Shown here in pieces: positions 10,791 to 38,313 of a DNA stretch of 64,000 nt (position 1 is the stretch's first letter; each line of letters starts with the position of its first letter). Both the position numbers and the translations under genes were made by a program. The stretch is from Candidatus Bathyarchaeota archaeon (lineage in GTDB: Archaea; Thermoproteota; Bathyarchaeia; Bathyarchaeales; Bathycorpusculaceae): assembly GCA_963815095.1 (NCBI GenBank), contig CAWFFH010000003.1, positions 832,001-896,000 on the forward strand. The letters run 5' to 3'. A model generated the notes under the pieces. The model worked only from the letters and a program-made list of their open reading frames with translations. It made no database searches and was not told where the DNA came from.

Positions 10791-12962
10791 ATGAGCGAAA
10801 TACAATTACGCGTTGGAGACGCACGGCAAAGAGATGTTGGCAGAGGAATCGCCCGTATTGACCAGCGAACCATGCAGAAACTAGGCATAAGCGCTGGAGA
10901 CGTAATTGAAATTGTGAACAAACGCACTACCTCCGCTATTGCTTGGCCAGCCTATAGCGAAGACCAAAATCGTGACATCATCCGTATCGATGGCTTCACT
11001 CGCAAAAACAGTGGAGTGGCCATAAACGAGTATGTGGTTATACGGCCTGCAAAAGTCAAAACTGCCCTTGCAATAACACTTGCACCAGTAGATATGCGCC
11101 TTAACGTGGATGAAGATTTTACTAACTTTGTTAAGAATCGCCTCATGGAACGCACCTTAGTCGAAGGTGACACAACCCTTGTTATGATGCTTGGACATGC
11201 AATCCCATTTACTGTTTCCAAAACACGTCCCCATGGAATCATAAAGGTTACCGCCGAATCCCGGCTTACAATCCTAAACGAGCCGGCGCCTGAAGGTAAA
11301 GGCTTACCCAGAACAAACTACGAAGACATCGGAGGACTCCAAGTAGAGATCCAGCGGGTACGCGAAATGGTAGAGTTGCCGCTTCGTCACCCTGAACTAT
11401 TCCAACGCTTAGGCATAGAACCTCCTAAAGGCGTGCTGTTGCATGGTCCTCCAGGATGCGGGAAAACTCTCCTTGCACGAGCAGTTGCTAACGAGTCAGA
11501 AGCCAATTTCTACTCTATCAATGGCCCTGAAATCATGAGTAAATTCTATGGAGAATCAGAAGCACGCTTACGCGAGATTTTCCAGCAAGCCCAACAAAAC
11601 GCACCAAGCATAATCTTCGTTGATGAACTCGATGCCATTGCACCAAAACGTGAAGAAGTCACTGGCGAAGTGGAAAGACGCGTTGTTGCTCAACTTCTCG
11701 CATTGATGGATGGGCTCTCTGGAAGAGGAAACGTCATAGTCATAGGCGCAACTAACAGACCAGGCGCACTTGACCCAGCCTTGCGTAGACCCGGACGGTT
11801 TGATCGAGAAATAGAAATCGGTGTTCCAGACAAGAAAGGTCGTTACGAAGTTCTCCAAATCCACACCCGTGGCATGCCGCTTGCTGAGGATGTTGACTTA
11901 CCGAAACTTTCTGCAATGACTCATGGCTACACGGGCGCTGACTTATCTGCGCTTGGCCGAGAAACCGCTATGAAAGCACTCCGAAGATACCTGCCCCAGA
12001 TTAACCTTGAAGAAGAACGCATCCCACCAGCCGTCCTCGAAAAGATGGAAGTTAGAATGGATGATTTCCTTGGTGCATTCAAAGAAGTTACTCCTACCGC
12101 AATGAGAGAAGTCTACATTGAAGTCACAACTGTCCACTGGGAAGATGCAGGAGGACTTGACGATGTAAAACAACATCTCATTGAAGCTGTTGAATGGCCA
12201 ATTAAGACGCCTGAAATATTCACTAAACTCGGGATACGCCCGCCTAAAGGCATCCTGCTATATGGTCCACCAGGTTGTGGAAAAACTTTGCTCGCACGCG
12301 CAGTGGCAACTGAAAGTGAAGCTAACTTCATATCAATTAAGGGCCCCGAAGTATTCAGCAAATGGGTTGGCGAATCAGAAAAAGCAATCCGCGAAGTCTT
12401 CCGCAAAGCCCGCATGGCAGCACCCGCCGTAGTATTCCTCGACGAAATAGACTCACTAACACCAAAACGTGGAATGGGTATGTCTGACAGTGGCGTTTCA
12501 GAACGCGTCATAAGCCAACTTCTGACAGAGATGGATGGAATAACCACCTTGCACGATATCGTAATTATCGCAGCCACTAACCGCCCTGACATGGTTGATT
12601 CCGCAGTTCTCCGTCCTGGACGCTTTGACCGTTTAATCTATGTGCCTGAACCTGATGAGAAAAGCCGTATGCAAATCCTCAAAATCTACACCAAAGGTAT
12701 GCCGATTAGCAAAGATGTGGACTTGAACCAGATTACAATTGCAACCAGGTACTATTCTGGCGCTGACATAGAATCTCTCTGCCGCGAAGCCGCAATGCAT
12801 TCACTGCGAAAGAACGTAAACTCAAGCGAAGTCACAATGAAAGATTTCCAGGATGCCCTAAAAGAGATGGGTCCATCGATTACACCTGACGTTGAGAAAT
12901 GGTACAAGAGCTTCATGCAGCAAATCCGACAAGTACAAAAGCCCGCTACTCCAGTAGCTTAG
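10791..12962 (+). CDS. cdc48: CDC48/VCP (VAT) AAA+ ATPase
   Basis: N-domain [10 protein letters not shown]; two GPPGCGKT Walker A motifs; RPGRFDR. Confidence 0.97.
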
Positions 12963-19429: not shown

Positions 19430-20791
19430 CTAATTTGGTGAATCGACCCAGCCAAAACTTTTCTTAACCGCCCAAACAATGAAAGGAAACACCAAGCTGA
19501 GTGCTATCAAAACAAAGGCTGAAGTATGAAACAGTTGAAAGTAATTATTCATCGGTCCAGAGAAAACGTTAAACCCATAATATGTGACGGAGTCCACGCC
19601 GAAAGCCACAAACCCAACCCACTTATCCAGAAAAGTGATGCTTTCGATTAAAGAAGCAAACAGTAAAACTAACCCAATTCCAATGAGAATTGGCTTAATC
19701 CAATGAACTCTCTTTTTCCAATTTGCTGAAGCAATCAGTAAGGTGCCTTTATCTGCCAAAGACGCAGCCAGCAAACAGTAAAACGGCAAAGCCAGATAAT
19801 TGTACTTAAAAGCGCTAACGTAGGGAACTGTTAAATGAGAACCAAACACCAAAAACAAATCCAGCACAGCAACCGCTACTATAGTTCCAACACAGAGAGC
19901 ATCCAACCAAACAATTTTTGCCAAAACTTTCCTATAGAGACGTGATAATACCAAAGAGAAAAGTCCCGCGGCAAACAGAAACCACCCGGCACTCTTAACC
20001 AGGGTGATGGGCAAAAACAACAGCGAAGGATTAGACACCAACACTGGATGGGTTATGTCGCTTGCTAAGTAGACTCCGAAGAAGTTTTGGTTGGCAAACC
20101 CTCCAAACCAAACCGCCTGCAACACAAAAGAGGGTGCAAGAAAAATCAGCACTTTAGGCAATGTTAGTTTGAATTGGTACTCTTTTCTTTGCAGAAGAAT
20201 CATTAACAAAAGGGGAACGAGCATAAAGACAGCAAAGAGTTTGGTCATTAATGCGACGGCAAAAAAGACCCCTGATAGCGCCAGTAGCTTTTGGGAATTT
20301 TTGCGAACAGCAAAAACCCCTGCAATCAAGAATAGCAGGCTGAAGAACAGGCTTTGGTTGTCTATGAGGAAGATTCTTGACATGTAAAGGTGCCAGGGAA
20401 CGATGCCGAAGAGTGCAGCAGCCACCAACCCTGTTCGTTTTCCGTATAGCAAGGTGCCTAAAGCATAGACGAGCAAGACGCAGCCAAGTCCAAAGGCAGT
20501 AACCACATCTACCCCGTTAAGGTAGGATAACCCGAATGCCTGGAAGACAGGTGCATCCATGTAGAAGCCCAAGGGCGGCTGATTAATCATAAGCCCAGTG
20601 GTCACATAAGGAAACCCACTCGATATTACACTTGACGCGGCTTGAAACTCAAGCTGCGCATCCCAATTGGTGTAAGTGCCCGTTGAAACTGACACGAGGA
20701 AGGCGCCAAGTAAAACTCCAATTAGTTGGTAGTGTGCATCCAAATGGGATCTAAAATTTCTTGTTTTCACTTTGCCTTCCTGCAGTAGCAT
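19430..20791 (-). CDS. GT-C (PMT/GT39-like) membrane glycosyltransferase
   Basis: NWDA, NQPPLG, LYGKRTGLVAA, ALMTK; multi-TM; start uncertain. Confidence 0.8.
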   Translation of the reverse strand: MLLQEGKVKTRNFRSHLDAHYQLIGVLLGAFLVSVSTGTYTNWDAQLEFQAASSVISSGFPYVTTGLMINQPPLGFYMDAPVFQAFGLSYLNGVDVVTAFGLGCVLLVYALGTLLYGKRTGLVAAALFGIVPWHLYMSRIFLIDNQSLFFSLLFLIAGVFAVRKNSQKLLALSGVFFAVALMTKLFAVFMLVPLLLMILLQRKEYQFKLTLPKVLIFLAPSFVLQAVWFGGFANQNFFGVYLASDITHPVLVSNPSLLFLPITLVKSAGWFLFAAGLFSLVLSRLYRKVLAKIVWLDALCVGTIVAVAVLDLFLVFGSHLTVPYVSAFKYNYLALPFYCLLAASLADKGTLLIASANWKKRVHWIKPILIGIGLVLLFASLIESITFLDKWVGFVAFGVDSVTYYGFNVFSGPMNNYFQLFHTSAFVLIALSLVFPFIVWAVKKSFGWVDSPN

Positions 20792-20969
20792 ACTTGGTGT
20801 TTACTGTTTTAAAATTTCGCAATCAAACCCTGATTATCTCGTTGGGATCTGTATTTTTGGTTTGGGAAATTTGGGGTTTGTGGTAAGTTTTAAAAAGGTT
20901 TCGTGGTTTAGTAAGAATTACTATTTGAGGTGGATAAGTTGTGGCGATGTTTGGCTGGAGGGTTTACCT

Positions 20970-21488
20970 TTGAGGGGAAAGGCATGGTCGATTGATGAAG
21001 AGCGGCTATTACGACAACTCGTTGAAGAAGGAAGGGATATCGATGGAATTTCCCAAGTTATGGGTATAACGCGAATTTCCATAAAGGGTAAAATTAGCAA
21101 TTTAGGATTAAAACTGATTGTTGCAACTGGTCTGCAGAATTCAGTTGCAGCAGCAGCAACAACTTCTCCGGTTCCAACCTTCGATTCCGCTGGGGTTGTT
21201 GATCCAGCTTCAGTCGTCCATTCTGTTATAGTCGAGAAGGTTGAAGCGGAATTGAAGATAAAAAGACCCTTACCCAGCATCGAGGAGAAAATGCGGGAAG
21301 TGGATGATGCTTCAAGAGCGTTACATCAAAAGGGTCTTAATCCAACAGAGATTAAACGATTAAGTAAGATCATCGACGCTGCGAAAGTGTACAACCAACT
21401 CTTTGAAAAGTATGCACACTACCGCGACTTAGAAAATGAACTCATCGAGTTGAGGCGCCAGCTTGCGACAGAAAGATCCAAAAAGTAA
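20970..21488 (+). CDS. Myb/GcrA-like HTH protein with coiled-coil C-terminus; putative terminase small subunit-like partner
   Basis: GKAWSIDEERLLRQLVEEG..ISQVMG..IKGKISNLGL; overlaps terminase gene; TTG start after GGAGGG. Confidence 0.6.
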   Translation: MRGKAWSIDEERLLRQLVEEGRDIDGISQVMGITRISIKGKISNLGLKLIVATGLQNSVAAAATTSPVPTFDSAGVVDPASVVHSVIVEKVEAELKIKRPLPSIEEKMREVDDASRALHQKGLNPTEIKRLSKIIDAAKVYNQLFEKYAHYRDLENELIELRRQLATERSKK

Positions 21489-22923
21489 CGCTCAAAGTCG
21501 TCGATGCTTCCACCCAGATGAGCTTCAAGCTCAGTGGGAAGGTCTTCGGGAAGACTACCGGCTCCATCAGGCGTCCAAGGTTGCGCAGGTTGATGCAGTT
21601 AAGGGTGATACTGGAAAGTTCTTCAGCGAAATTTGCCATCTTAAACCTTTTGCATATCAGCTTGAGCTAGCAGAGTTGTATCGGCGTTATCAGTTTTTGG
21701 CTGTTAGGTGGCCTAGGCAGACGGGCAAGAGCACCTCCATCGGTGGACTCCTTTTGGAGGATGCCTATGAGAATAACGATCTCAATATTGGGTTCATTGG
21801 ACCCAGCTTTCGCCAAACCAAACTCAACCTCCGGCGCGTAGCGGGTTTTTGCCGCAACCTACCTTCTGGAACTTGTAGCATTCAAAGAACCCGCATAAGC
21901 TTCAAAAACGGCTCCTTCATTGAAGCTTTTCCAAATAATCCTGAAACAATTCGAGGCAATACTTTTCATAGGCTTTGGTGGGATGAGACCAACTTTACTG
22001 CAGGTGATGACGACCTCTACGACGCCATCCTGTTCACCTTGGGAACCACAAACGGCAAGCTCATCGCTAGCAGTACTCCCTTCAACACCGACTCCCTGTT
22101 CTGGAGAATGTGCAACCACAAAGACTTCACCGACTTTGCAAGACACCATTTCTCCTTCGAGGCAGCCTTGGATCCTAAGGGTCCACTTAATGCGGCGATG
22201 GTTGAGCGGATAAGGAAACAGTTTGGGGATGACCCAACTCGGTGGCGGCGGGAGATGGAGGCGGAGTGGGCTGAAGATGAGGATGTGTGGTTACCGCAGA
22301 GCTTGATTGTTTCGTGTATTGGCACGGCTAAGAATTGTGGTTGAGACCTCGAAGTTTACGATACTGAAAAGTGTTATAGTGGAGATTTTTTTGTTGGCTT
22401 AGATATAGGTCAAGTAAGAGACTACACCTCCCTGACTGTTGTCGAGCGGGTTGATGACATGATCTATTTGAGGCATCAAAAGCTGTTTCCACATCCCACC
22501 AATCATGCACACATCTTAGGCTACCTCAAACGATTGCAGGACCAATGGGGGGGCTTCCAGAAAATTCGCGTAGATTTCACCCGCGAAGGACCCAGCCTAA
22601 TCAAAGACATGGAAACTGCAGGGATAGAAAACGCTGAAGGCGTAAACTTTAGTGTTCCCCGCAAAAGCGAAATGGCGTATCTTTTAAAAAAACGGATGAT
22701 GAATCAACAAATCCGCTTTCCCTTGCTTACCTGGGAAAAACCCTACCGAAGCGACATATGCACCGAACTAAACGTTGAAAAATACCAACTGCGCAAAGAC
22801 GGCAACATAGGATACAGCCACCCAAACGGGACCCACGACGATGTATTCTGGAGCTTCGCGTTGGCTGTTTACGGAACAGTTGACATGGAACCCGAACCAT
22901 TCTTGGCTATAGTGCCTCGATAA
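21463..22923 (+). pseudogene. Phage terminase large subunit (ATPase + RNase H-like nuclease) split by in-frame TGA at 22342-22344
   Basis: YQ adenine motif, RQTGKST Walker A, IRG..WWDE Walker B, SSTP motif III; same frame continues through FVGLDIGQVRDYT, VDFT and HDDVFWSFALA. Confidence 0.85.
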
Positions 22924-23136
22924 ACTGTTAGTTTGTATCAGAAAACGAGAAATGAGTTAAAATGGTTCGAGGTCAGCCCCAGTCCGCAGGAAAAGGTCTC
23001 CTGTTGGCAAAAAACTCAGCCAGAGGAGGGTATAAAGCTAAAAAGTTTGGTATTTTATTTTGTTGTGATGTTAAGCTATTTGGCGGTAAGTCTTTCCTAC
23101 GGTATCCCCGATTTTGGAAAGGCCTTGGTTGGATGT

Positions 23137-23388
23137 TCAAGCGGAATTGCTGGCAACAATTAGAACTTGATCAGTCAAGAAATCTGTCAATTTTTTTAAG
23201 CTTGCTTTCTTGTGTGTGGCTAAATGATTCTTTATGGCGCCGTTCATAGCCTTCAAGTCGGGCACTACTAGAATTTCAAAGCCGCAGGAACATTTGATAA
23301 TTGGCATGCGTGTTTGATTTTCAACAAACTTGCTGGTCTGATCTTGGGTAAAAATGAAGTTTGTTTCTTGGGTGCCTTTTTTCTTCAT
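23137..23388 (-). CDS. Small putative Zn-binding hypothetical protein
   Basis: IIKCSCGFEILVVPDLKAM..HLATH; start uncertain. Confidence 0.6.
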   Translation of the reverse strand: MKKKGTQETNFIFTQDQTSKFVENQTRMPIIKCSCGFEILVVPDLKAMNGAIKNHLATHKKASLKKLTDFLTDQVLIVASNSA

Positions 23389-23662
23389 GATTATTTCTTT
23401 GCTCCGAGAATGGAAGTTTATTGTTGTTTGGCAAAATTTATTGACTTGTTGTAGGCGTGGCACAGTCACAACTGCATCGCAATTTATGGGTAATTCTTCT
23501 TATTTATGTATCATTCAATTTATTTTGTTGCAATAACATGTAATATGCTAATAAAAAGCAAAATTGCTTGAATTAAACAACAGCAAAACAACAAAGCTTA
23601 TTACATTCTGCTTCATAACATACAGATATATATGAATAAATTCGAAGGAAAGGAAATTAAAG

Positions 23663-23956
23663 ATGAGACGATCAAAACTCGAAATGTACATTGACATCAT
23701 TAAAATGTTGGCACACTCAGGTCCATCAAAGTTAACACACATCATGTACAAAGCTAACCTCAACTGCAGCATTCTCAACGAGTATTTGGACTTCTTAATC
23801 AAACAGGGTCTTGTCGAAAAACGAACCATTGAAAAAGATCATACAGTTTTCGTAGTTACTCAAAGAGGCATAAATGTACTGAAGTATTTCCGAGAACTCA
23901 CGCAATCGCTGCCGCTAGAACAAGAAACCCAACGACAAAAGACACAATTGCTATAA
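23663..23956 (+). CDS. Archaeal winged-helix transcription regulator
   Basis: MRRSKLEMYIDI..THIMYKANLN..YLDFL..GLV..VTQRG. Confidence 0.85.
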   Translation: MRRSKLEMYIDIIKMLAHSGPSKLTHIMYKANLNCSILNEYLDFLIKQGLVEKRTIEKDHTVFVVTQRGINVLKYFRELTQSLPLEQETQRQKTQLL

Positions 23957-24271
23957 TAACCGACCAATGGTCTTTAGAACCACGCCACAGAGAATTACCG
24001 AAAACTTGCGATGCTTTCTTAAAAGGTGTCGTATCTGACAAAAAAACCTTGAATACCTTTAATATTTTTTAAAGGTCTGATTATAAGGCAAATGCTTTTT
24101 ATTATAAGGACACAAATTTGGGGCTCCATTAAATTTTAATAACTTTAAAAGATGCTTAAAACAAAACAAATATTCTATCTATTGAAAAACATTTTTCAGG
24201 TAAAATCAATTCACTTATTCAAAGTCAGAGTTAAAATAAGACCCAAAATTGAAGCCTAAAGAATTAAGCAG

Positions 24272-24287
24272 TGAGTGTTCTCTCTCA
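24272..24287. promoter_or_regulatory. TGAG-N8-CTCA palindrome upstream of wHTH/DUF1724 regulator
   Basis: TGAGTGTTCTCTCTCA; same geometry as sites at 30371, 31210 and 34589. Confidence 0.4.
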
Positions 24288-24349
24288 ACTATTAGGAATC
24301 GATAATAATTACCTAAGATATATGGGTACACAATATATGAGTTGATGTC

Positions 24350-25135
24350 TTGGATTATCTGTCGCCTCTTAGATCAGAACTTAAACTTAAAATTTTATTA
24401 AGTCTCTTAACCGGTGAGAGAAAAATAGCTGACCTTAGATCTGATGTTGAGACCCGAGATACCACCATTCTTCACGTTCTTGGAGAATTTGGTGAGCTAG
24501 GCCTAATAACAAAGTCGCAAGGAGTGTACCGATTGTCTTCTCTTGGTCTACTTGAAACCAACGTTTTTAAAGAGCTCATTTCAACAACCGACGTTATTGA
24601 AAAGTTTAAGGACTTTTGGTTGTCACACAACGTTACTGATATACCCTCATATCTTCTTCTAAACTTAGGTGCATTAAGCGACGCTTCGATAGTTCGCACT
24701 GAAGCGACCGATCTGAACCTCGTTCACGAAAAAATCGTAAATATTCTAAAATCCTCAAAAAGGATCATGGGAATTTCGCCAGTATTTCATGGCGATTATG
24801 TTCCGGTTGTCGAAAAATCGTTGAAAGAAGGCAATTCTGTGACCTTAATATTTACCCCTAAAGTTCTAAAGAAAGCTTCGGCGTTAGCAGAGACAGGAAT
24901 CATAAAAAAATATGTTCTGGAAGGGAAATTGAAAATCTTCGTAAATGAGGACGTAAAGATTGCTCTAACTGTGGCCGAGAATAGTTTTTCTATGGGCTTA
25001 TTTAATCTAAACGGTGAATACGATTATGGCATAGACTTGATGTCCACAAGCAAGGCAGCCATCGAATGGGGTGAACATCTCTTTGAAGATGTCGCTAAAC
25101 GAAGTATGCCAATGGACATAAAGTCATTGATTTAA
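24350..25135 (+). CDS. wHTH + DUF1724 (FilR1-like) transcription regulator
   Basis: N-terminal ArsR-like wHTH; FWLSHNVTDIP; GISPVF; AIEWGEHLF. Confidence 0.8.
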   Translation: MDYLSPLRSELKLKILLSLLTGERKIADLRSDVETRDTTILHVLGEFGELGLITKSQGVYRLSSLGLLETNVFKELISTTDVIEKFKDFWLSHNVTDIPSYLLLNLGALSDASIVRTEATDLNLVHEKIVNILKSSKRIMGISPVFHGDYVPVVEKSLKEGNSVTLIFTPKVLKKASALAETGIIKKYVLEGKLKIFVNEDVKIALTVAENSFSMGLFNLNGEYDYGIDLMSTSKAAIEWGEHLFEDVAKRSMPMDIKSLI

Positions 25136-25273
25136 GAAAGCGATTCTTGCGTTTTCTTCAATTGGATTAAGTCGTTAATTTTAACTCGATTTTCACTTGA
25201 TTATCTGAATGGGTAAATGTGGATTTTGAATATAGATTAGGTCTTCATAAGTCTCAATACTTATCGAGAATCT

Positions 25274-26206
25274 ATGTTTGGATGGAGAAAGTTCATGAAG
25301 GCTCTATCCACTAAAATAGAACCAGCCAAACCCTCAAAAAATTATGCAAATCACCTTCTGAAAATAACCTATTTTCGAGCAAGCAAAATTACAAAATTCA
25401 TGACTTCAACATCACTCTTCCTATCTTTGTATGCATCATTGGTAGTAGTTTTTAGTTTTCTCGTATATGGACATAGCATTGCCCCCGAGATTGTCTTGGC
25501 AGCATTCCTGGTAACCTTTTCAATATATAGTTTGAATAAGGCCACTGATAAGATAGAGGATGCGATCAATTCCCCAAATATTGAGTCAAGATCTCGCTCA
25601 TATTATGTGATTGCTTCGGTTTCCGCAATGATTGCCTGTCTCTCAATTGGCGTATTAGATGGTTTGAAGGTTCTTCTTGTTTTATCAATGCCTTTTGCGA
25701 TCGGTCTTGTTTACAGTGTTAGAGTAGCTAAAACCTTGCCTCGCCTTAAAGAAATTACAGGGGTGAAAAGCTTTATAGTCGCACTTAGCTGGGCTGTGAC
25801 AGGCGCTTTTCTGCCATATGCGCTTGGAGCCGTACAATTTCAAATAGTATTCTTCGTTTTCACTTTCATATTTATTCAAGTGCTGGTAAAAGAAGTTATT
25901 TTTGACTCCTTGGATATGAAAGGAGACAAGGTTTCTGGAGTAACTACGATTCCTATGGTTTTGGGAAAACGGAGGACAAAATTCTTTTTAGTGATTATAA
26001 ACGCATTCTCCGGATTACTGGTAATGTTTTCCACTTTTAGTGGCTTAATTGTTCAATTTGTTTCTTTATCGATCTTCGGTATCGTGTTTAGTTTCTTAAT
26101 AATTTGGCTTTTTGTTGGCAAAGATCATAAGAAACTCCATGGGGAACCAGTTGTTGAAGGAAAATGGATGCCTGTAGCAGATTTAATAAAATCTATCCTG
26201 CGTTAA
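25274..26206 (+). CDS. UbiA-family prenyltransferase
   Basis: NKATDKIED and DSLDMKGD Asp motifs; YS..RLKEITGVK; GVTTIP. Confidence 0.8.
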   Translation: MFGWRKFMKALSTKIEPAKPSKNYANHLLKITYFRASKITKFMTSTSLFLSLYASLVVVFSFLVYGHSIAPEIVLAAFLVTFSIYSLNKATDKIEDAINSPNIESRSRSYYVIASVSAMIACLSIGVLDGLKVLLVLSMPFAIGLVYSVRVAKTLPRLKEITGVKSFIVALSWAVTGAFLPYALGAVQFQIVFFVFTFIFIQVLVKEVIFDSLDMKGDKVSGVTTIPMVLGKRRTKFFLVIINAFSGLLVMFSTFSGLIVQFVSLSIFGIVFSFLIIWLFVGKDHKKLHGEPVVEGKWMPVADLIKSILR

Positions 26207-26441
26207 TCAAATAGATTATCGAGTTTCACGGATGAAATAAGATTTGATAAGATTTGTTTAATACTCAACTGTCCAAAAGTTAGGTGTTAGTGCTGGTCTA
26301 ACTCGTATGATCTCGCAGTCTGTTATTCCTCTTAGTTACAGTTGTTTTGGCTGTTGGATTTGTGAAAAGTTAATCCACATAATTGTAGTGAGTCGTAAGA
26401 CTTATAAGAATAGCTAATGCAATAAAACAGTTGACCCAAAA

Positions 26442-27245
26442 TTGAATAGCGTCTCGAGTAATACTAAATCTGTCAGCAGAACTATCTTTCTTATCTCAGT
26501 CGTAATATTACTCGTGGTTTGCGTTACAGTCGGTTTTGTAGGGTACAACAACACAAATAATCTCCAAACCAGCTACAACTTACTGCAAACCGACCAACAG
26601 AACCTTAATTCTACATACACCCAGTTACAAACAACATATAATCAGTTACAAGAATCAAACCAGAACCTGCAGATACAATTAGCATTACTTCAATCAAACA
26701 ATAGTCAACTTCAAAATACCAACATCATCCTTCAATCCCAGTGGGGTTTACTCGACGACCAATTTACCTCACTTAACAGTCAGTACAAACAATTGCAATC
26801 AACCAACAATCAGTCCCAGACACAGATAGCTAATCTTCAACACCAGATTGCAAGCCTTCAGTCACAATTATCGAACGCGACAATTTTAATCGCTCAGTTG
26901 CAAGGTCAAACAGGAATCATACCCTCGTACATAGACCTGCATTACGTCGAACCCACAGGTTCACCGAGTTATTACTTTTTGCAATTGTCACTGAAAAATA
27001 CTGGAGAAGTGCCCATAAAACAGATATTTGTTACTTTCAATTCTGTCCGGATTCCGATGACCTTCACGTATCTGAATTCAACGATTAGTGCTGACATACC
27101 ACTTCCTCCAAACCAAACGACTAATGGAGGTCAGAGCGTCACGCCGCCAGTCAATAACGTTGGCACCTATCCACTGGTAATCCAGGGATGGGCCACCAAC
27201 TCGTCAGTCTATACCTATCAAACAACAATAACTGCCCACCTATAA
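26442..27245 (+). CDS. Membrane-anchored coiled-coil surface protein
   Basis: N-terminal TM, Q/L/N heptad repeats, beta-rich C-terminal domain (LKNTGEVPI). Confidence 0.65.
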   Translation: MNSVSSNTKSVSRTIFLISVVILLVVCVTVGFVGYNNTNNLQTSYNLLQTDQQNLNSTYTQLQTTYNQLQESNQNLQIQLALLQSNNSQLQNTNIILQSQWGLLDDQFTSLNSQYKQLQSTNNQSQTQIANLQHQIASLQSQLSNATILIAQLQGQTGIIPSYIDLHYVEPTGSPSYYFLQLSLKNTGEVPIKQIFVTFNSVRIPMTFTYLNSTISADIPLPPNQTTNGGQSVTPPVNNVGTYPLVIQGWATNSSVYTYQTTITAHL

Positions 27246-27680
27246 TCAGTCATCGCAGTGGTTCTGTAGGGTAAATTTTTGGATTGAAAAACGCTAGTGC
27301 GAATTGTACCACTCAACAATTGTGCGCGCAATCTGCTCTGAATAACCAGCCTTAACTAACATTTGGACAAATTCTTGATCGCTCAAACGCATTACCCACC
27401 ACATCTCAAGCCTCGATTAATATTAAGCGATATTTCGGTTCTGTGAATATTTCGGAAAATATTCCCGACGGACCTTACATTGATTGAGCACATGAAAACA
27501 TAACATTTTAAGTGCCAATTAGCCAAATGTCAATAGTTTGAAAGAATGTCAGCACAGTCATACTAAATAACAAAGCGTTATGATATTGATTGTTTAATTT
27601 TTCATAACAATTATGAACAGATCTCAACCACATTTATATCGAGTCAAAGGTAATCAATATCAAGAAAGCAAGGTGAAAAA

Positions 27681-28930: not shown

Positions 28931-29279
28931 TCTCCAATAGCGTAGCAGTGAGAAATTTGACTTTAAAGGCCACATCCGACTGGAAATAGGATCTCTATCT
29001 GTAAAAAAAATACCTATTTGAAAGAGTTCGATTTTTCCTTAGCTGTTGTGGTTTGACCCATGGTTCAAATCCCATGGAAACCAACATGATCCACATCAAC
29101 CCGTTCAGGTAAGTCCAGTCTGACTATATCTCAACATCTTCTTATCAGTTAATGGAGATAAAATTCCCACGTTTTAGGTTCTTAATACAATAATTATTCT
29201 ATTAATATTCCGTATGAAACGTGAGCCAATAGAGTTATATTGACTGTGCAACCATCTGATTTATAGGAGAATTTTTGAA

Positions 29280-29666
29280 ATGACTACTGATGGGAACAAA
29301 GTCATCGTTCTCAGATTCATCAAAGAAGTTTTGGGCGGCGGCAATATCGATCTTATCGACGAATTGCTAGCACCGAACTATGTGAATCCGAGTATGGGCG
29401 TCACTAATCGACTTGGTTTCAAGGCTGTGATTTCCGGTCTGAAGACCACTGCGCCAGCACGCGATTTTCAAATCGCAGACCTAGTGGCCGAAGGCGACTC
29501 AGTCGTATTTCGAGGCAGCATGAACTTTACCCTCTCCACCGGGAAAAAAGCCTCTGCCAGAGTTATCACCTATTACCGTCTCGTCAACGGGAAGATCGTA
29601 GAAGATGAACCGATAAGTACCCCACCTCTAACCGAATTGTTGGCCGACATGATGCCGCCGAAATAA
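29280..29666 (+). CDS. SnoaL/NTF2-like (ester cyclase) protein
   Basis: NKVIVLRF..GNIDLIDELLAPNY, VAEGDSV, NGKIVE. Confidence 0.8.
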   Translation: MTTDGNKVIVLRFIKEVLGGGNIDLIDELLAPNYVNPSMGVTNRLGFKAVISGLKTTAPARDFQIADLVAEGDSVVFRGSMNFTLSTGKKASARVITYYRLVNGKIVEDEPISTPPLTELLADMMPPK

Positions 29667-29791
29667 GGTTCCTAAGCTACATCTTCAAAAGTAAGAGTCT
29701 TGCGAGTGCTTATTGGGCCAAGGATCCCCTCATGATTGATATTTCGGAAATGACCAATGGGATTTTTTTTAAACATTTTCCTTAAATTTTT

Positions 29792-30360
29792 TCAAGTTAA
29801 TTTTGTGGGTTTGTGGCTCTTGATGAAGGTTCCCTCTTCGAGTTCTTCGAACGCTTTGTCTAATTCCTCTTCAGTGTTCATCACAATTGGTTCTCTCCAC
29901 GCAACTGGCTCGTTCAAAGGTTCACCAGCTACAAAAAGAAATCGAGCACCAGATAGGCTTGAAATTTTAACTGAATCGCCTCTACTGAAAACGGCGCATT
30001 GTCCATTTTTAATTTTCTGATCAGCAACTTCGACAGATCCGTTTATGAAGTAAATAAAAACTATAAGGTTTTTGTGCGTCAAATGTTGGAATTCTTTTCC
30101 AGCAGCCAACTCAACGTCAAAATATTCGGTTTCAGTCGACTGGTCCCGAACGGGTCCTTCAACTCTATCTATTTTACCCGCTATGACTTCAATCGTTTGA
30201 ACGTCTTTCACGAATGTAGGTATTTGCTCATTTGTTATCCCCGATATTTTGGATCAGTCATCTTCCTTTTAGCTGGCTGATTCACCCAGAGCTGAAATCT
30301 CTGCATTAAACCGTCATATTTTTGGAGCAATTCTTGATGGAAAATGCCTGATTTTAGATT
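29792..30360 (-). pseudogene. Pirin-family gene remnant (5'-truncated, 1-nt deletion near 30238)
   Basis: GIFHQE..FQLWVN.PAKRKMTDPKYRG, then shifted frame ..VIAG..GPV..GEPLNEPVAW..PIVMNT. Confidence 0.8.
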
Positions 30361-30363
30361 CAT

Positions 30364-30387
30364 TGGTGTTTGAGTTTTGTCACTCAC
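30364..30387 (+). repeat. 24-bp direct repeat, copy 1 (contains TGAGT-N6-ACTCA palindrome)
   Basis: TGGTGTTTGAGTTTTGTCACTCAC, identical at 31203..31226. Confidence 0.9.
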
Positions 30388-30457
30388 CCATCCTAATATT
30401 GAATGAACTCTAACTAATTTTTCGCATATGACTTTAGCGTTTGAGGGAGGTGAAAAA

Positions 30458-31054
30458 ATGAATAAGAAAATCTTAGCTTTCATATCTGTACTTCTATTGG
30501 CATCTATGGCCGTACCCGCTCTTGTTCAGGCAACACCTCTGAAGGAAAAAAACAATGACAAATTCCTAACCTGGAGCGACTCAGCAACCTTTAGCCTTTT
30601 TAACATACTCGGTGGTGACCATCAATACGTTCCTTCAGTTGAAGAAACGAATAAACTAGTTATAAACTACGACGAATCATTCATAACTTATACAATTACA
30701 ATCGGCAGCCACACCTACAATCTGGGTACTGACTTCACATACACTGGTCACGTCGAATACACCTATTTTGACCCTGTGTTTGAAGGACCAGCAGGTCTAC
30801 TTTTCCCTTCGTCTTATAGCGCATCACAAGTTAAAGTCGACTATACACTTGACTTTTCAGCCATTGCAGGTGGCGTAGACGGAACCGTTAACATGAGGGC
30901 AGTGTTTGGCCCCGGGAACAGCGGAATAACGAGTTTGTCAGGAACAGGTGACTTACAAAACGTTCAGGTAAAACTTGCCAACGGAGAGTCAGGGGTATCC
31001 GGCTACGTAGTTAGTATCGCGCACGCAGGCTTAGTTTCTGGTTGGCCAGAATAA
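30458..31054 (+). CDS. Secreted hypothetical protein
   Basis: GGAGGTGA RBS; signal peptide MNKKILAF..VQA. Confidence 0.7.
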   Translation: MNKKILAFISVLLLASMAVPALVQATPLKEKNNDKFLTWSDSATFSLFNILGGDHQYVPSVEETNKLVINYDESFITYTITIGSHTYNLGTDFTYTGHVEYTYFDPVFEGPAGLLFPSSYSASQVKVDYTLDFSAIAGGVDGTVNMRAVFGPGNSGITSLSGTGDLQNVQVKLANGESGVSGYVVSIAHAGLVSGWPE

Positions 31055-31202
31055 ATGTGATAGCCGTTAACACTTTTCCCTTTTTTTTTAAATCTTTCAA
31101 GTTAATCCTGCATGAAGCTACATCAACAAAGGAATTAATATTAAAACACAATTTCGAAGTACACTTAGTCTTCTCAACTTATGCTTACCCAACGGAATGC
31201 AA

Positions 31203-31226
31203 TGGTGTTTGAGTTTTGTCACTCAC
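31203..31226 (+). repeat. 24-bp direct repeat, copy 2 (putative operator/promoter element)
   Basis: Identical to 30364..30387; both are followed by ATCCTA(A/T)AT and then a gene start. Confidence 0.9.
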
Positions 31227-31277
31227 TTAATCCTATATGCTGAAATCAACTGTTAGGTTAATTGTAAAGGGCGAATT

Positions 31278-31673
31278 ATGCCAGAAATCAAATGGACAAC
31301 ACTATCCCAAGTTAATCCTCAACAAAACTACTTCGCCTATGCTGCACTTGCAGAACGGAAAACCGCTTGGTCCTATTTTAGTTACCTTATGAGAGCACGA
31401 AAAATCCAAAACCAGCTAAACCACACGGAAGGAATAGTTGGTTTTACGGCGCGATTGGATTTCCTCAGCAAAAAAGTAATCCAGTTAGCCGTCTTCAAAA
31501 ATGAAAACTCTCTCAAAGAGTTTGCGCATTCTGGACAACACGCCAACTGCATGGCAAACACAAAAAGCAGCATGAAATGGCTCAAACAATCCACTTGGAA
31601 TATTTTAGGCTCTGAAATTCCTCCAAACATGCCTGATGCTCTTAATAGGATTGAAGCGGAGGTGAGAACATAA
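31278..31673 (+). CDS. Dimeric alpha-beta barrel (DUF3291/ABM-like) protein
   Basis: QL..TEGIVGF..F.NE.SL.EFAHSGQH pattern. Confidence 0.6.
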   Translation: MPEIKWTTLSQVNPQQNYFAYAALAERKTAWSYFSYLMRARKIQNQLNHTEGIVGFTARLDFLSKKVIQLAVFKNENSLKEFAHSGQHANCMANTKSSMKWLKQSTWNILGSEIPPNMPDALNRIEAEVRT

Positions 31674-32107
31674 CTAGAATTGAAAGAACCCTTGAAATTA
31701 ATGCATAACCAGAAAAAATCTTTGGTCTTCTAAATTGGGAAAACAGTGTTCAATGGTATTCAGCGTTTAAGACAGTTCAGCGTACTTCTACAATTAAGAA
31801 TGCTGTAGGCGAAACTGTTCATATAATTGGCGAAGTTGCTGGCACTAAAGCGGAATGGGATGGAGAGACAACTGAATCAGTGGAGAATGTAAGGCATGCC
31901 TGGCGTTCAATAGGTGGAAGCTTTACTGGTTTTGGATCCTTTAATCTCGCCCCGACTGACAACGGAACTAAAGTGTCAATGATGATGGATTATGAGTTAC
32001 CCTACTCCATTTTTGGCAAACTGTTGGATAAGCTGAAGTTCCAAAAAGCATTCGAGAAAACTATCGAAGAAGGATTAGCAAGGCTGAAAGAAATAACTGA
32101 AAAATAA
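31670..32107 (+). pseudogene. SRPBCC/START-like protein with ATA start and in-frame TAA at 31706
   Basis: GGAGGTGA RBS then (I)TRIERTLEINA*PEKIF..W..GTKV..DYELP..GKLLD..GLARLKE. Confidence 0.75.
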
Positions 32108-32164
32108 AAGGCACATACCATCTACAATTTTTTTATTGGTAAACGGTAAACGTGAGGAACGACA

Positions 32165-32512
32165 GTGGAAAAAGAACTGATGACAAAGCTCTTAACCAAA
32201 AATGGTCTTGCAGTACACGAAGTAGCAGTCTATATGTATCTTGCCCTAAATGGGCCAAAAACAGCAATTGAAATAGCCAATTCCCTAGAAATATACAGAA
32301 GAAAAATCTATCGAACTCTCAAAAAACTCTCGCAAATGGAATTTGTAACAAGCACCACAAATTTTCCATCAACGTTTGCCGCTGTCTCCTTCGATAAAGC
32401 CTTTGACCAATTTACAAAAGCAAACGCCGATGAAGCAGACCGTCTAGAACAAGAAAAAGAAAAAATTTTAGCATTCTGGAAGAGTAAACTCAATCAACTT
32501 ATGGATCGCTAA
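32165..32512 (+). CDS. TrmB-type HTH protein (DNA-binding domain only)
   Basis: GL..EVAVYMYL..GPKTAIEIA..IYRTLKKL..FV..P..F.AV. Confidence 0.8.
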   Translation: MEKELMTKLLTKNGLAVHEVAVYMYLALNGPKTAIEIANSLEIYRRKIYRTLKKLSQMEFVTSTTNFPSTFAAVSFDKAFDQFTKANADEADRLEQEKEKILAFWKSKLNQLMDR

Positions 32513-32528
32513 CTCATTTTTGCTTCTC

Positions 32529-34571
32529 CTACTTTGGCGGATAAAACTCTATGATAACATCTCTGCCAAAAGCCCCATCAGTGCCAGGTCCAGAATACTT
32601 CGACTTAGGATGGAGAAATGTAACAAATGCCTCAAGGATATTGCCTTCAGTTTTTAGCAAGTACCCTGAAGGGATAATCGCACGGTAGGCATTTGTTTTA
32701 ATGTCGCCATAGCCTTCAAATTGTAAGCAAGAAGGCGGAATCGCATGTTTCCCGTACAGAAGAGTTATTGGAATTGTCCATCCCACAAACAATGTGTTGC
32801 CATGTATGCAGGCTTCAAGCTCATTTTTCTTGATTAATTGAAGGTTCTCTTTGGCTGGGGTTCCTTCGAGTGCTTTTCTCCAAAAATCCATAGACTTAGG
32901 ATTGTCTGTTATAACGGCACAGGGAACGAAGGCTTCGCCATCGAGAGTTTTAAGCCAAAGATGTACAATCATCGCATCTTCCGCTCCATAAGTTGAATGC
33001 TTCTCTATATGGTATGTATGGAACAGGGTGACTGGGAGATTGAATTGGCTGGGTGGATGAATAATTGCTTGCCCATTAACGGTATAAAAGGTAACTATGT
33101 CAGTTTCTGCTGGCGCATGTAGGTTTTTTTGGGCATTAATAATTTTTTCTATAACTGATTTCTCAGTCAGATTTTTTGAAGCTTCCAAATCTTCCATCAC
33201 AGTGTGCTTGAGCATTTTTTTGGTTGCCTTGTACACTACATGGTCTGAGGCAGATGCAATAGTGGCACCCGCAATGGAATCCAACGTTATGACTGAGGGT
33301 GCCTGAGCCTTCTTCCACATTTCCTCAAGCATTTTACTGGTTTTACCAACATGCTCAAGTTCACTCGTGTAGAAAATATCTTCAAACCTCGGCGCTTTCT
33401 CGTTATCAACAGAAATTTCAAATTGGAAGAGATACTTGCCATCAACCACGGTGGTTCCCAAGTAACCGTTTGAAACGTGCCTAATTTCTCCATAATTAGA
33501 TAGTTCTTGTACAGTTTCAAAGTTTCTTCTTGTTATGGGGGCCATGATTCTGGTAAATACGCCTGCCTTCTTCCAGGCTACAAGCTCGGCAGCGTGAAGC
33601 TCCATTAAACCGTCCACTGAAGTCACTATGACAATTTCTTTCTTGGCAGAATCTAATGTTTCTGAATACTTTTTGCGCGCAGCTTCCGGGTTTTTGATTA
33701 TGCCCGTCTGGACCGGTGATTTACCTGTCTCTATTTCGGATATTCGCAGATAGATATCGCGTGAATTCTGCCAAAGATCTTCAAAGACCCCTGTGAAGGT
33801 CTGAACTAAAGATTTGCAGTTTGTCCAAAGACAAACATTATCCTCGACGGATAGGTCTTCGATTCGGGGTCGAATAAAAAAGAGTGTCTCATCGTCATCT
33901 TTTATTATTAACTCGGGTGAGAGGGTTGAATGTAAATCGGGGTTTCTGCCCCTGAAGTTGAAGCCTGTTCGAGACATTTTTTTAAGTATGTTTTTGGTAG
34001 GGGTGAGGTTTTTGCTTGAGAACTCTGTTAGGAAACGGAATTGTATCTGTGTTTTAAGTGGGTGTTTGGAGGCGACGTCAAAGAGTCCTTCTTGTTCAGC
34101 TCTTAAGAGGTTCTGTATTGTTGTTATTGCGGAGAGCTGCGTTTTGCTTTCTGTTACCATCTGTGAGATTTTGGCATTTACTTTTTTTCTTCCATCGATT
34201 ACGATAAACTTTTCAACCTGTTGTGGGACTTCTTTTTTGTTTAGGGTTTTCCAGTATGTGAGGACTTCTTGTTTAGTTTTTTCTATTCTTTGGGCTTCGT
34301 TTCGTTTTGCTTGGATTAGCGAGTCGACTATTTCTCCCAGTGGAACAGGTATGTATCGGACGGGGGATTCTAAAGTTGTTTCCACTAATCCTTTGGTTTG
34401 GAGGCTTTTGAGTAAATGGTAGATTTGAGCTTTGTCCTTTTTTGTCTGTCGAGAAATTTCTGTGCCCTTTGAAAGCGGATATCTGGACAGATAGAGGTAG
34501 ATTTCCATCTCAGTCTCTGTTATGTTAAGATTCTTTAACATTTTTTTTAGTTCATCTTCACCCAAAAACAC
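32529..34571 (-). CDS. Large TrmB-family transcription regulator with tandem effector domains
   Basis: N-terminal TrmB HTH (IYHLLKSLQTKGLVETTLESP); two PLD-like effector repeats ending FEDLWQNS and LEEMWKKA. Confidence 0.85.
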   Translation of the reverse strand: MFLGEDELKKMLKNLNITETEMEIYLYLSRYPLSKGTEISRQTKKDKAQIYHLLKSLQTKGLVETTLESPVRYIPVPLGEIVDSLIQAKRNEAQRIEKTKQEVLTYWKTLNKKEVPQQVEKFIVIDGRKKVNAKISQMVTESKTQLSAITTIQNLLRAEQEGLFDVASKHPLKTQIQFRFLTEFSSKNLTPTKNILKKMSRTGFNFRGRNPDLHSTLSPELIIKDDDETLFFIRPRIEDLSVEDNVCLWTNCKSLVQTFTGVFEDLWQNSRDIYLRISEIETGKSPVQTGIIKNPEAARKKYSETLDSAKKEIVIVTSVDGLMELHAAELVAWKKAGVFTRIMAPITRRNFETVQELSNYGEIRHVSNGYLGTTVVDGKYLFQFEISVDNEKAPRFEDIFYTSELEHVGKTSKMLEEMWKKAQAPSVITLDSIAGATIASASDHVVYKATKKMLKHTVMEDLEASKNLTEKSVIEKIINAQKNLHAPAETDIVTFYTVNGQAIIHPPSQFNLPVTLFHTYHIEKHSTYGAEDAMIVHLWLKTLDGEAFVPCAVITDNPKSMDFWRKALEGTPAKENLQLIKKNELEACIHGNTLFVGWTIPITLLYGKHAIPPSCLQFEGYGDIKTNAYRAIIPSGYLLKTEGNILEAFVTFLHPKSKYSGPGTDGAFGRDVIIEFYPPK

Positions 34572-34587
34572 TGCCCCCTGACCTAGG

Positions 34588-34605
34588 GTGACATCGATTT
34601 GTCAC
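34588..34605. promoter_or_regulatory. GTGACA-N6-TGTCAC palindrome in leader of TrmB regulator (putative auto-operator)
   Basis: GTGACATCGATTTGTCAC lies between AT-rich promoter region and start codon. Confidence 0.55.
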
Positions 34606-34771
34606 AGTAATTCCAATTTAAATCAAAGAACTATATTTTGTATTCGCAAAATCAAAATTAAAAAATGAAACTTTCACAAACGTAAAACGGCATCTTTGCT
34701 TAAAAAATGTTCAAAAAGCTTTTCAGCTAACAAACACATCGATAATTCTAAGGAGAGTTGAGTTGGAATCT

Positions 34772-34984
34772 ATGCCTGCTCCCACTGTAAAAGATGGCAA
34801 ATGGTCTAAAGAACGTGAAAGAACAAAATCTGGAAGATGGCGAAAAAAACGTTCTGACGCAAATCAACCCAGACAGAAAAAATCGAACCGAAAGTACGCT
34901 ATCGCTATCGTAGCCGCAGGCATAATCGTCGTAGCCTTAATTGTGATTTACTTTTATTTCCCTAACCTGCTAAAATTGCAATAG
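34772..34984 (+). CDS. Small basic protein with C-terminal TM anchor
   Basis: RTKSGRWRKKRSDA basic region plus TM; AGGAG RBS. Confidence 0.6.
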   Translation: MPAPTVKDGKWSKERERTKSGRWRKKRSDANQPRQKKSNRKYAIAIVAAGIIVVALIVIYFYFPNLLKLQ

Positions 34985-35321
34985 CAAACTGAACAATAAA
35001 TAACGATTCACGCGTGTTTTTTATTTTTTAATAGTTCGTAGGAGGTAAGTTCGGTAAGTCTCAGCCTTATTTGCAAAAAAGTTTGTTGATGCGTTATTTT
35101 CAGGCTTATTCAAATCAATTTTGCTCTCTTATTCATTGCAGTTTGAACCCAATTGGGTACAAATCCCGCCCGATCTATAATTTACGGTAAGTGTAAGCCT
35201 TGGAATTCAGGCGAATAGAATTCCAATTTGGTTAAAAAGAAAACAAAGCCAAAAAGTTCCTTGCGCTCTGAATATTTTTTACGATGGTCAGTACATTGAT
35301 ATGTACCAATATTTGAATTGA

Positions 35322-35579
35322 CTATAAATGGTCACCAAACCATTTTATAAACCATTTTTCTCTTGCTAATGTTCTCTCGTTCATAGCTTCACAGGTTGCT
35401 TTCCAATCAGGGTTTTCATATTCCGTATTAACCCATTTTTCTGTGAAAGGCGGCATTTCTTTTTTGACTTCATCTAAAATCTGTTTTATCTTAGCATTTG
35501 CAAGTTCAGGAGTACTGTACCCTTTATAAGATAATTGTTCAATTGGAATTAATTCTTCATAAAGTCTGCCTTTGCTCAT
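35322..35579 (-). CDS. Hypothetical protein
   Basis: ATG with GAGG RBS; 85 aa; no recognised motif. Confidence 0.55.
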   Translation of the reverse strand: MSKGRLYEELIPIEQLSYKGYSTPELANAKIKQILDEVKKEMPPFTEKWVNTEYENPDWKATCEAMNERTLAREKWFIKWFGDHL

Positions 35580-36150
35580 ATTTTTGCGCCTCTTTTCCCT
35601 TATCTGTTTAAAATGATTTTAAGCATTTGTATTTATTCTTGCTCTATATCCACAGTCTTTCGAATGCCCTTTACTGGTATCCAAATGTAAATTAGGTAAT
35701 GCACAAAAATTTTTACGTGCTTAAACACAGATCGTGAAGATTTGGCAGAAGGGTCGAGAAAGCCTTTTAACAGTTTCTTTTGAGGCTCTGATTTTTCCTA
35801 AACTGCCGTTTTGCGCTGGCTTATCCCTAAATGTGTTATTTTTTGGTTCATGAGTCTATCTTGTGGTTTCTGTGAACCAGAGTTAGTTCGGACTGCATTT
35901 GCAGCGAAGGTTAATGTTATAAGTCAATTTGTAGTCGCAAAAGAAAGGAACTTTTACAACAGCAGGTTTGATATCGACCCACTATAATTCTAAACTCACA
36001 CAAGTTTTCCGAAATATTATAAATGCTACTTTTTTTAGTGATGTTACTCTTTTATTTATTTTAGACCTAACGCCCTTACACATAGATTAACCTGTTAACT
36101 ATGACCAATAATCCCGAATGAAAACTACGATCTTTTTTCAGGTCGGCAAA

Positions 36151-38177: not shown

Positions 38178-38313
38178 TAATACTTTACAGTTTGGAAGAT
38201 AAGAATTTTTTTGGTTTAGCTGGCATGTTCCCGGGAGCGTTAATTCAACCGGATGGTAACTCTACGCTTATCAGATTGAAATTCATATAAACACAATTCA
38301 ATCAGATAAAAAA

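Follow-up and report, generated by a model that had tools for sequence, protein, structure and literature searches.

The stretch of DNA analysed here, 64,000 nucleotides (nt) of a Candidatus Bathyarchaeota genome and hereafter called the window, bears a pair of genes of viral type: a small gene for a helix-turn-helix (HTH)/coiled-coil protein resembling a small terminase subunit (TerS), and the frame of terL, which encodes the large terminase subunit (TerL). The HTH gene and the terL frame (21463-22923) are co-oriented and overlap by 26 nt; the pair is flanked by a PMT_2-type glycosyltransferase gene (19430-20791) and a small zinc-ribbon-like gene (23137-23469), both on the minus strand. The features of the unit are collected in Table 1. 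We found that the pair is a chromosomal insert, that it belongs to a lineage of lone HTH-terL pairs lying apart from viral genes, and that these pairs recombine with other terL-bearing DNA and are kept under purifying selection, which suggests that the unit is used and not merely decaying.

Table 1. The HTH-terL unit and its parts, in coordinates of the window
Feature	Coordinates	Strand	Remarks
Left end of inserted unit and putative promoter region	20840..20969	+	conserved block GTGGTAAGTTTTAAAAAG at 20880-20897
HTH/coiled-coil gene	20970..21488	+	TTG start, 172 aa; N-terminal Myb/GcrA-like HTH, disordered linker, C-terminal long helix; TerS-like
terL 5′ open reading frame	21463..22344	+	293 aa; ATPase domain with Walker A, Walker B and coupling motif; ends at in-frame TGA
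In-frame TGA	22342..22344	+	variable linker position between the two TerL domains; alternative allele CGA (Arg)
terL 3′ remainder	22345..22923	+	192 codons; RNase H-like nuclease domain with GLD, VDFT and HDD
Right end of insert relative to empty site	22924..23040	.	approximate (about 23040); cross-locus homology ends at the terL stop codon

The identity of TerL was established with several kinds of comparison. The terL frame matched the Pfam family Terminase_6N (PF03237) with 42.2 bits against a cut-off of 22, as well as phrog_2 of the PHROGs collection (E 1.1e-26), its C-terminal part matched phrog_5909 of the same collection (E 3.4e-6), and its nearest solved relatives were the gp17 proteins of T4 and RB49 (E 8.7e-7). 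The stretches RQTGKST (Walker A, 21715-21735), LWWDE (Walker B, 21973-21987) and ASSTP (22066-22080) aligned with SRQLGKTT, IYIDE and TTTP of gp17, which we take to be its Walker A, Walker B and motif III, and were conserved across 30 relatives. The nuclease motifs GLD (22393-22410), VDFT (22567-22581) and HDD (22828-22842) bear aspartates that are invariant in the alignment of relatives (D303, D360 and D448/D449) and, by analogy, are presumably the catalytic residues. Both the ATPase and the nuclease motifs were retained in all the intact TerL copies aligned (18/18). An earlier note, made on this DNA from the sequence alone, had described a TerL, with its motifs, overlapping an upstream HTH/coiled-coil gene; the pair proved real, and all the motifs named there were located.

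The HTH protein gave fewer matches. In Pfam it reached GcrA only below the cut-off (E 0.0022), and in PHROGs it matched phrog_323 (E 8e-6). Its AlphaFold model, built with 20 relatives (mean pLDDT 75), predicts a 3-helix HTH, a disordered segment (residues 52-89) and a 47-residue C-terminal helix (125-171). When this model was compared with known structures, as the earlier note had proposed for TerS, the best fold matches were generic HTHs, for instance the DNA-binding domain of GcrA (TM 0.81 over 45 residues, E 0.56). Matches in the protein atlas were only unnamed viral and Bathyarchaeota clusters (0.93-0.94); for the HTH protein a Terminase_5 cluster appeared at only 0.80, which is a lead only. 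The TATA-like block GTGGTAAGTTTTAAAAAG, ~75 nt 5′ of the HTH start, is a putative promoter, judging by its conservation in non-coding DNA.

The earlier note had also called the TerL complete, and here it was mistaken, having missed the in-frame TGA. This codon (residue 294) is the sole interruption of the terL frame and lies in the linker between the ATPase and nuclease domains; the 3′ remainder offers no in-frame start codon (ATG, GTG or TTG) ahead of the GLD aspartate. The relatives have E at this column in 33 of 67 rows, and Q, F, V, L, K and others in the rest. Four public runs were compared with the region, parts of which had no contig cover. The sole public contig over position 22342 (run X4, 261 nt, 2 differences, depth 2.2) reads C and thus encodes CGA, that is, Arg. 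Since this near-identical contig carries CGA, the TGA of the window is either a very recent CGA-to-TGA change or an assembly error. Recoding of the TGA as selenocysteine or Trp was considered and rejected, because the relatives differ in their residue at this column and the X4 contig has CGA. Other broken terL copies bear TAA or TGA stops, at other positions judging by the lengths of their open reading frames (ORFs), and, unlike the window copy, the frame is uninterrupted in the closest relative (locus L053) and in 66 of the 80 related loci described below.

The surroundings of the pair were searched for further viral genes. Pfam, run on the 71 window ORFs of 75 aa and longer, and PHROGs, run on 34 window ORFs (7 + 27), detected no portal, capsid, tail or integrase family, and tblastn of all the proteins of five full proviruses against the window returned only the HTH gene, terL and one beta-propeller repeat gene. 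This bears out the earlier note, which had recognised no viral gene of these four kinds in the 64 kb.

The comparison with other genomes showed that the pair is an insertion. In genome G076 (L137) the site is empty: the glycosyltransferase gene is followed, after ~0.5 kb, by the orthologs of the two right-hand neighbours of the unit, which places the insert of the window between ~20840 and ~23040 (2.2 kb). On the left, homology between the window and G076 is lost at about 20836-20850, and homology with the same-locus copies in G009 and G022 begins at 20850. When the orthologs of this glycosyltransferase gene were inspected in 29 other genomes of the genus, the pair was found beside 3 of them and was absent within at least 1 kb in 24, the flanks being too short in 2. 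At a second locus, genome G010 has an insert of 2579 bp, composed of the putative promoter, the HTH gene, terL and 445 bp with two tRNA 3′-end fragments, between two convergent genes that lie about 10 bp apart in the window's own genome.

Fragments of tRNA genes were seen 3′ of the lone pair at a site beside a GT4 glycosyltransferase gene (locus L023), where a 24-nt stretch (11471-11494) matches the 3′ end of tRNA-Pro(GGG) with 92% identity and a 26-nt stretch (11722-11747) repeats that of tRNA-Arg(CCU) exactly; the two stretches run on the opposite strand. These pieces look like the att scars of integrated elements. The homology between G001 and G010 breaks inside the tRNA-Arg(CCU) 3′-end piece.

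To see in which company such pairs occur, we searched 41 genomes of the same order for TerL (E ≤ 0.001). Matches were obtained in 32 of them, including 20 of the 24 genomes of the genus, where a single genome had as many as ten; fragments of TerL occur often in the genus. Two sets of loci were then compared. The first comprised 20 kb around 20 TerL copies; the second comprised 80 of the 190 relatives found, with flanks of up to 10 kb, and was classified with 13 marker proteins of full proviruses, a copy being called lone if no viral marker occurred within at least 4 kb on either side. Viral neighbours were present at 42 of the 80 loci (terL intact in 37), 26 loci were lone (terL intact in 20), and at 12 the flanks were too short to classify (terL intact in 9). 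The intact lone copies are open over about 1460 nt. For the first set, tblastn located an HTH homolog directly 5′ of terL in 18 of 19 rows, including that of the window, and the sole miss is an artefact of a short flank; in the second set an HTH match was obtained at 77 of 80 loci. The homolog accompanies terL in both the viral and the lone context.

At 5 loci of the first set, the pair closes the structural module of a provirus, with the gene order HK97-type capsid gene, unknown genes, tail tube gene, gp10-like gene, tail/baseplate gene, small gene, HTH gene and terL; at the 42 viral loci of the second set it likewise ends a module with capsid, tail tube and gp10-like genes. Further on, 3′ of terL, a tyrosine integrase gene lies beside tRNA-Leu at one locus (L029), and integrase homologs are present at three further viral loci (L078, L082 and L097). 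At the other 15 of the first 20 loci, host genes stand on both sides: genes for glycosyltransferases, Nuo/Mrp subunits, ribosomal proteins, UbiD, AcnX, DnaJ and a P-type ATPase. Pfam detected no virus-structural family in these first-set flanks, nor among 142 ORFs flanking 15 lone loci; the latter encode housekeeping proteins (a tRNA synthetase, ribosomal proteins), surface-glycan enzymes and some toxin-antitoxin pairs.

The proviruses of this family have some features of their own. The gene after proviral terL is not that of a portal; it is a conserved gene of ~480 aa that fuses an ABC-type ATPase to a GNAT acetyltransferase-like region (38 of the 42 viral-context loci; for example, L027:11474-12913 and L026:11417-12868) and has weak PADLOC matches to mad3/mad8 and PtuA. 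The position of the structural genes 5′ of HTH-terL is an unusual order. In an otherwise complete provirus, an IS110-family transposase gene (L026:8677-9705) splits the HTH gene. One TerL, 70% identical over residues 85-486 and accompanied by capsid-module genes, comes from a contig titled as a Methanocella bin (L095), hence from a different archaeal class, where a binning error or a host jump is possible.

As for the lone loci, many pairs (L043, L044, L107, L112, L113, L085, L033 and the window) adjoin surface-glycan genes (PMT_2, GT2, GT4, GT87, rhamnose/UDP-sugar enzymes, exosortase) and the toxin-antitoxin pairs HepT/MNT and MazE/PIN; no baseline was computed for this observation. The segment L051:12518-15760 may be another integrated element.

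A maximum likelihood tree of TerL (quick search, LG+G4, 70 rows, among which L049, L065, L088 and the window have one internal stop each) placed the window copy in a clade of 16 (SH-aLRT 99) composed of 13 lone and 3 unclassifiable copies, with no viral one. The nearest outgroups of this clade are two viral copies. The tree has two further lone clades, the lone clades are deep-branched, and the lone/viral label changes at least 5 times over the 70 rows. Members of the window's clade share chromosomal sites: that beside the PMT_2 glycosyltransferase gene is occupied in the window, L053, L051, L042 and L056, that beside the GT4 glycosyltransferase gene in seven genomes and a third one in three genomes, and there are single sites besides. 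Copies of one locus nest among those of another within the clade. The lineage of lone pairs persists at a few chromosomal loci across many species.

Selection was assessed from the ratio of non-synonymous to synonymous divergence (dN/dS), estimated pairwise by the Nei-Gojobori method for pairs with a synonymous divergence (dS) of 0.02-1.5. For terL, the median dN/dS was 0.083 in lone-lone comparisons (16 pairs) vs. 0.088 in viral-viral ones (43 pairs). The terL copies at the GT4 site that are separated by a dS of only 0.09-0.17 already give 0.04-0.09. The HTH gene is less constrained (0.15-0.41). Since its split from L053, which is 90% identical and intact, the terL of the window has accumulated 32 synonymous and 8 non-synonymous changes, as polarised with two outgroups, and that of L053, 31 and 15; the window copy thus behaved in its evolution like a functional gene until very recently. 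As most lone pairs are intact, under a selection as strong as that on virus-embedded copies, the data suggest that the unit is used and not merely decaying. The earlier note, which had proposed this survey of related genomes together with the phylogeny and dN/dS, had named homologs lying always within full proviruses, together with relaxed selection on this copy, as the mark of a simple relic. We found neither: 26 of 80 copies are lone, and purifying selection is strong.

The rest of the own genome was inspected for capsid genes and other terminases. The only other trace of TerL is a dead lone unit (C3:314785-314931; L002, L125), in which the start of an HTH protein (KRWTVQEETEL, ~100 nt upstream) leads nearly directly into the last 48 codons of TerL; it stands at a site where genome G013 has an intact lone pair. 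The search for portal and major capsid genes elsewhere in the genome, which the earlier note had suggested, led to two structural modules of the provirus family on contig C4, at ~217,700-226,300 and ~29,100-39,900 (L122-L124), with tail tube, gp10-like and tail/baseplate genes. Both are frameshifted and lack the HTH-terL pair, and a match to the capsid gene was obtained only in the module at ~217,700-226,300. With its modules frameshifted and devoid of terL, the own genome cannot fill capsids of its own.

These data bear on the simplest alternative, a plain proviral relic, in which a tailed provirus would have lost everything but terS-terL and the remainder would be decaying neutrally, the TGA being the first visible lesion. 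The in-frame stop of the window copy, the two frameshifted modules without terL, the dead unit, the abundance of TerL fragments in the genus and the 6 broken copies among the 26 lone ones would all fit such a history. Neutral decay is at odds, however, with a dN/dS of about 0.08 maintained over dS values of up to 1.5 and with the ratio of 32 synonymous to 8 non-synonymous changes on the window branch, as well as with the open frames of 20 of the 26 lone copies, the depth of the lone clades and the non-stop allele in a near-identical contig. The plain relic is thus disfavoured, and we regard it as unlikely.

Comparison of copies at one locus revealed recombination in the pairs. Between G009 and G022 the host flanks differ by a dS of 0.3-0.6 and terL by 1.6, and the HTH gene of the window is closer to that of G009 (dS 0.34) than the flanks are. 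In a sliding comparison of the two genomes, the 5′ half of terL came out at 84-89% identity, on a par with the flanks, and the 3′ half at only 64-71%; the old 3′ end of terL, 94% identical to that of G009, has been displaced 4 kb downstream. Of the 38 lone or unclassifiable loci, 5 have C-terminal pieces of terL further downstream on the same strand; of the 42 viral loci, none has. The TerL gene tree disagrees with the divergence of the flanks. The displaced and downstream pieces, along with the G009/G022 mosaic, indicate that lone genes recombine with incoming terL-bearing DNA. A fixed att site in the 3′ end of terL was considered as the source of the 3′ pieces and dropped: the pieces start at many different residues, and the G009/G022 case fits homologous recombination followed by deletion.

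Recombination also opens the way to another explanation, namely that the low dN/dS is borrowed: lone copies would be functionless, passive landing pads for viral DNA, overwritten time and again by viral terL. The mosaic at one and the same locus with its displaced 3′ end, the uneven distribution of C-terminal pieces (5/38 vs. 0/42) and the discord between gene tree and flanks are what it would predict. It is nevertheless quite improbable in our opinion, as the window's clade of 16 has no virus-embedded copy among the 80 sampled loci, so that the donors would have to be unsampled, and as copies of one locus separated by a dS of only 0.09-0.17 still show a dN/dS of 0.04-0.09.

We also examined the ends of the unit. 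Between sites, DNA homology starts 100-600 nt 5′ of terL, taking in the HTH gene and the TATA-like block, and ends within ~60 nt of the terL stop, with the exception of one pair of loci (~75 nt) and of two pairs in which it ends inside terL. Such sharp limits at the ends of ORFs are not by themselves evidence for a transposon, because selection on the two genes alone would leave the same picture once dS exceeds 1. The cross-locus comparison revealed no termini or inverted repeats common to the loci, and no clear target duplication was seen at the junctions of the window, where the sequence is AT-rich. The search for att-like or inverted repeats around the unit gave only short AT-rich matches, as expected by chance.

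A self-mobile cassette, in which the terminase nuclease/ATPase and the HTH protein would move the 2-kb unit in the manner of a transposase or a homing enzyme, would account for the discrete inserts of 2.2-2.6 kb at two loci and for the spread of one TerL clade over at least three shared loci and several unique ones, with the copies of different loci intermixed. Yet the ends described above share no termini or inverted repeats between loci, no clear target duplication stood out from the AT-rich junctions, the sharp homology limits are expected anyway at dS > 1, and to our knowledge no terminase has a self-mobilising activity; we regard such a cassette as very improbable. Scarcely credible is a bigger mobile element or virus that has escaped notice and whose remaining genes would have no homologs within reach of detection: the many small family-less ORFs near some copies and the toxin-antitoxin genes, methylases and tRNA 3′-end fragments near several units might hint at it, but the flanks are housekeeping genes whose order is conserved in genomes without the unit, and at the two loci with empty sites this explanation is largely excluded.

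Taken together, the results lead us to a reading that we consider rather probable: the unit is a selected, capsid-less terminase module, made of a TerS-like protein and a T4-type TerL, which derives from siphovirus-like, integrase-bearing proviruses and is in use. The earlier note had left the choice between a domesticated or satellite-like unit and a proviral relic. The first is favoured, because 26 of 80 copies are lone between host genes, form clades of their own and are under strong selection, while the specific functions that the note had offered, defence or packaging in trans, found no support and are kept conditional here.

Probably, the unit acts in trans on the capsids of helper viruses, either hijacking their packaging or interfering with it. 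A terminase requires a portal-bearing procapsid for DNA translocation, and the genus is full of related proviruses, so that action in trans is the most economical idea; as the own genome has no intact capsid module, such action would need an incoming virus. The HTH protein would mark DNA just as TerS marks a pac site, and TerL would cut the marked DNA and translocate it into the procapsids of an infecting or co-resident related virus. As a result, chromosomal DNA beside the unit could be packaged and transferred, as with a satellite, a gene transfer agent or lateral transduction, or else the packaging of the virus itself could be spoiled, which would serve as defence.

A bolder version of this idea is tentative and, in our view, unlikely. 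Minimal terminase units of ~2 kb (a promoter, a TerS-like gene and terL, without integrase or replication genes) might be packaging initiators that cut at their own site and load the neighbouring chromosome into helper procapsids. The adjacent variable islands with surface-glycan, toxin-antitoxin and regulator genes would thereby be carried along, the yield of the virus would be lowered, and the unit would spread via homologous recombination of its flanks. If true, no smaller satellite-like element would be known, and lateral transduction would have an archaeal counterpart.

Several results weigh against a selected terminase module acting in trans. The terL of the window is broken by a stop codon as assembled, and the CGA allele is supported by one contig with a depth of 2.2. 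The own genome is devoid of an intact capsid module of this virus family, and its second lone unit is dead. Broken terL copies are somewhat commoner among lone copies (6/26) than among viral ones (5/42). The dN/dS values are pairwise Nei-Gojobori estimates with many pairs saturated, and all the genomes are metagenome bins; moreover, the lone genes evidently recombine with other terL-bearing DNA, so that the low dN/dS may in part have come from working viral genes. As to the HTH protein, its model gave no fold match, TerS included, in PDB and BFVD at E ≤ 0.001, and its sequence matched no TerS family in Pfam, PHROGs or NCBIfam. A defence role finds no echo in PADLOC 2.0, where no model family matched the HTH protein or TerL. 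Finally, the variability of the flanks has no consistent direction, being 3′ of terL at two loci and 5′ at a third, and the site beside the glycosyltransferase gene varies even without the unit. A simple reading as lateral transduction is weakened thereby, and the idea that a directional hypervariable flank would betray packaging was for these reasons not upheld. At several units gene order breaks between genomes.

The selected terminase module can be compared with systems already known, that is, with selected prophage remnants, terminase-bearing satellites, gene transfer agents and lateral transduction. With the terminase of tailed viruses (T4 gp17-type, Terminase_6N) it shares the domain order, the motifs and the small overlapping HTH gene 5′ of terL, and in the same genus the pair lies in proviruses with an HK97-type capsid gene, tail tube and integrase. 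The differences are the lack of portal, capsid and tail genes within 64 kb, the lack of a match to a TerS model, and the stop codon in the assembled copy. Defective prophages are reportedly a source of domesticated genes under purifying selection (a concept of Bobay et al. 2014); like these, the lone pairs are virus-derived, chromosomal, at fixed loci and under purifying selection, but they consist of exactly a two-gene packaging enzyme, belong to an archaeal class, occur in several copies per genome and form clades of their own.

Phage satellites with terminase genes of their own (the small terminase of SaPI/PICI, the capsid-forming PICIs) and lateral transduction from chromosomal pac sites (PMC6687093, PMC8575950, PMC12829572) likewise combine a chromosomal packaging specificity with the use of helper capsids, which for our unit is only presumed, and with variable DNA adjacent. 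In contrast to PICI-like satellites, our unit has no integrase, replication module, repressor or att sites, its 2.2-kb insert comprising two genes only and no bounding repeats; and in contrast to lateral transduction, packaging from the site of the unit is only presumed and flank variability has no consistent direction. Gene transfer agents, multi-locus systems with the terminase included (PMC5026251), are another case of a viral terminase kept by the host under selection; they keep an intact head-tail cluster in the same genome, whereas here both structural modules are frameshifted. Within the same host class, a complete Bathy-6 genome contains a siphovirus-like provirus of 46.8 kb with terminase, integrase and structural genes, said to be common in Bathyarchaeia (PMC11697101), and the proviruses of our genus are of the same tailed, integrating kind. 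The passages of that paper on terminase, provirus and mobile elements describe a whole provirus and no lone terminase pairs. A full-text literature search on lone or domesticated archaeal terminases, which covered passages from the main text of papers, found no lone pairs with selected lineages of their own.

Terminase genes routinely serve to mark proviruses. Of those in this genus, about a third stand outside proviruses and are conserved as strongly as the viral ones, so that counts of proviruses based on terL would overestimate their number in these genomes. Such strong conservation means that a packaging enzyme kept in the chromosome without a capsid serves some use. If the capsids of infecting viruses are what it acts on, we would be dealing with a satellite-like or defence-like element of very small size, and with a way of transferring genes in a class of sediment and soil archaea that is abundant and uncultured. 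We know of no mechanism of gene transfer demonstrated for this class.

Beyond the pair, the window is archaeal in its gene content, encoding RtcB, archease, TFIIB, TFIIE and aTrm56. No tRNA fragment was detected near the unit, and the only tRNA gene of the window lies at 47221-47298. To the right of the unit, the region 23000-27500 has a GC content of 0.36 vs. 0.42-0.47 around it. Its products are, in order, a zinc-ribbon-like protein, two regulators (HTH_45 and FilR1-like), a UbiA prenyltransferase and a coiled-coil protein rich in Q/N. Only the closest relative, L053, has this region in full, and the first two genes are found in G076 as well. The earlier note had placed the pair at the left edge of an accessory region, and this holds only in part, as in G076 (L137) the two right-hand genes stand directly beside the same glycosyltransferase gene without the pair. 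In two further genomes, G075 (L128) and G059 (L140), the glycosyltransferase gene adjoins the tRNA-Val region, which in the window (46848-47298) lies 26 kb further right; the segment 20.8-46.8 kb is therefore inserted or rearranged relative to them.

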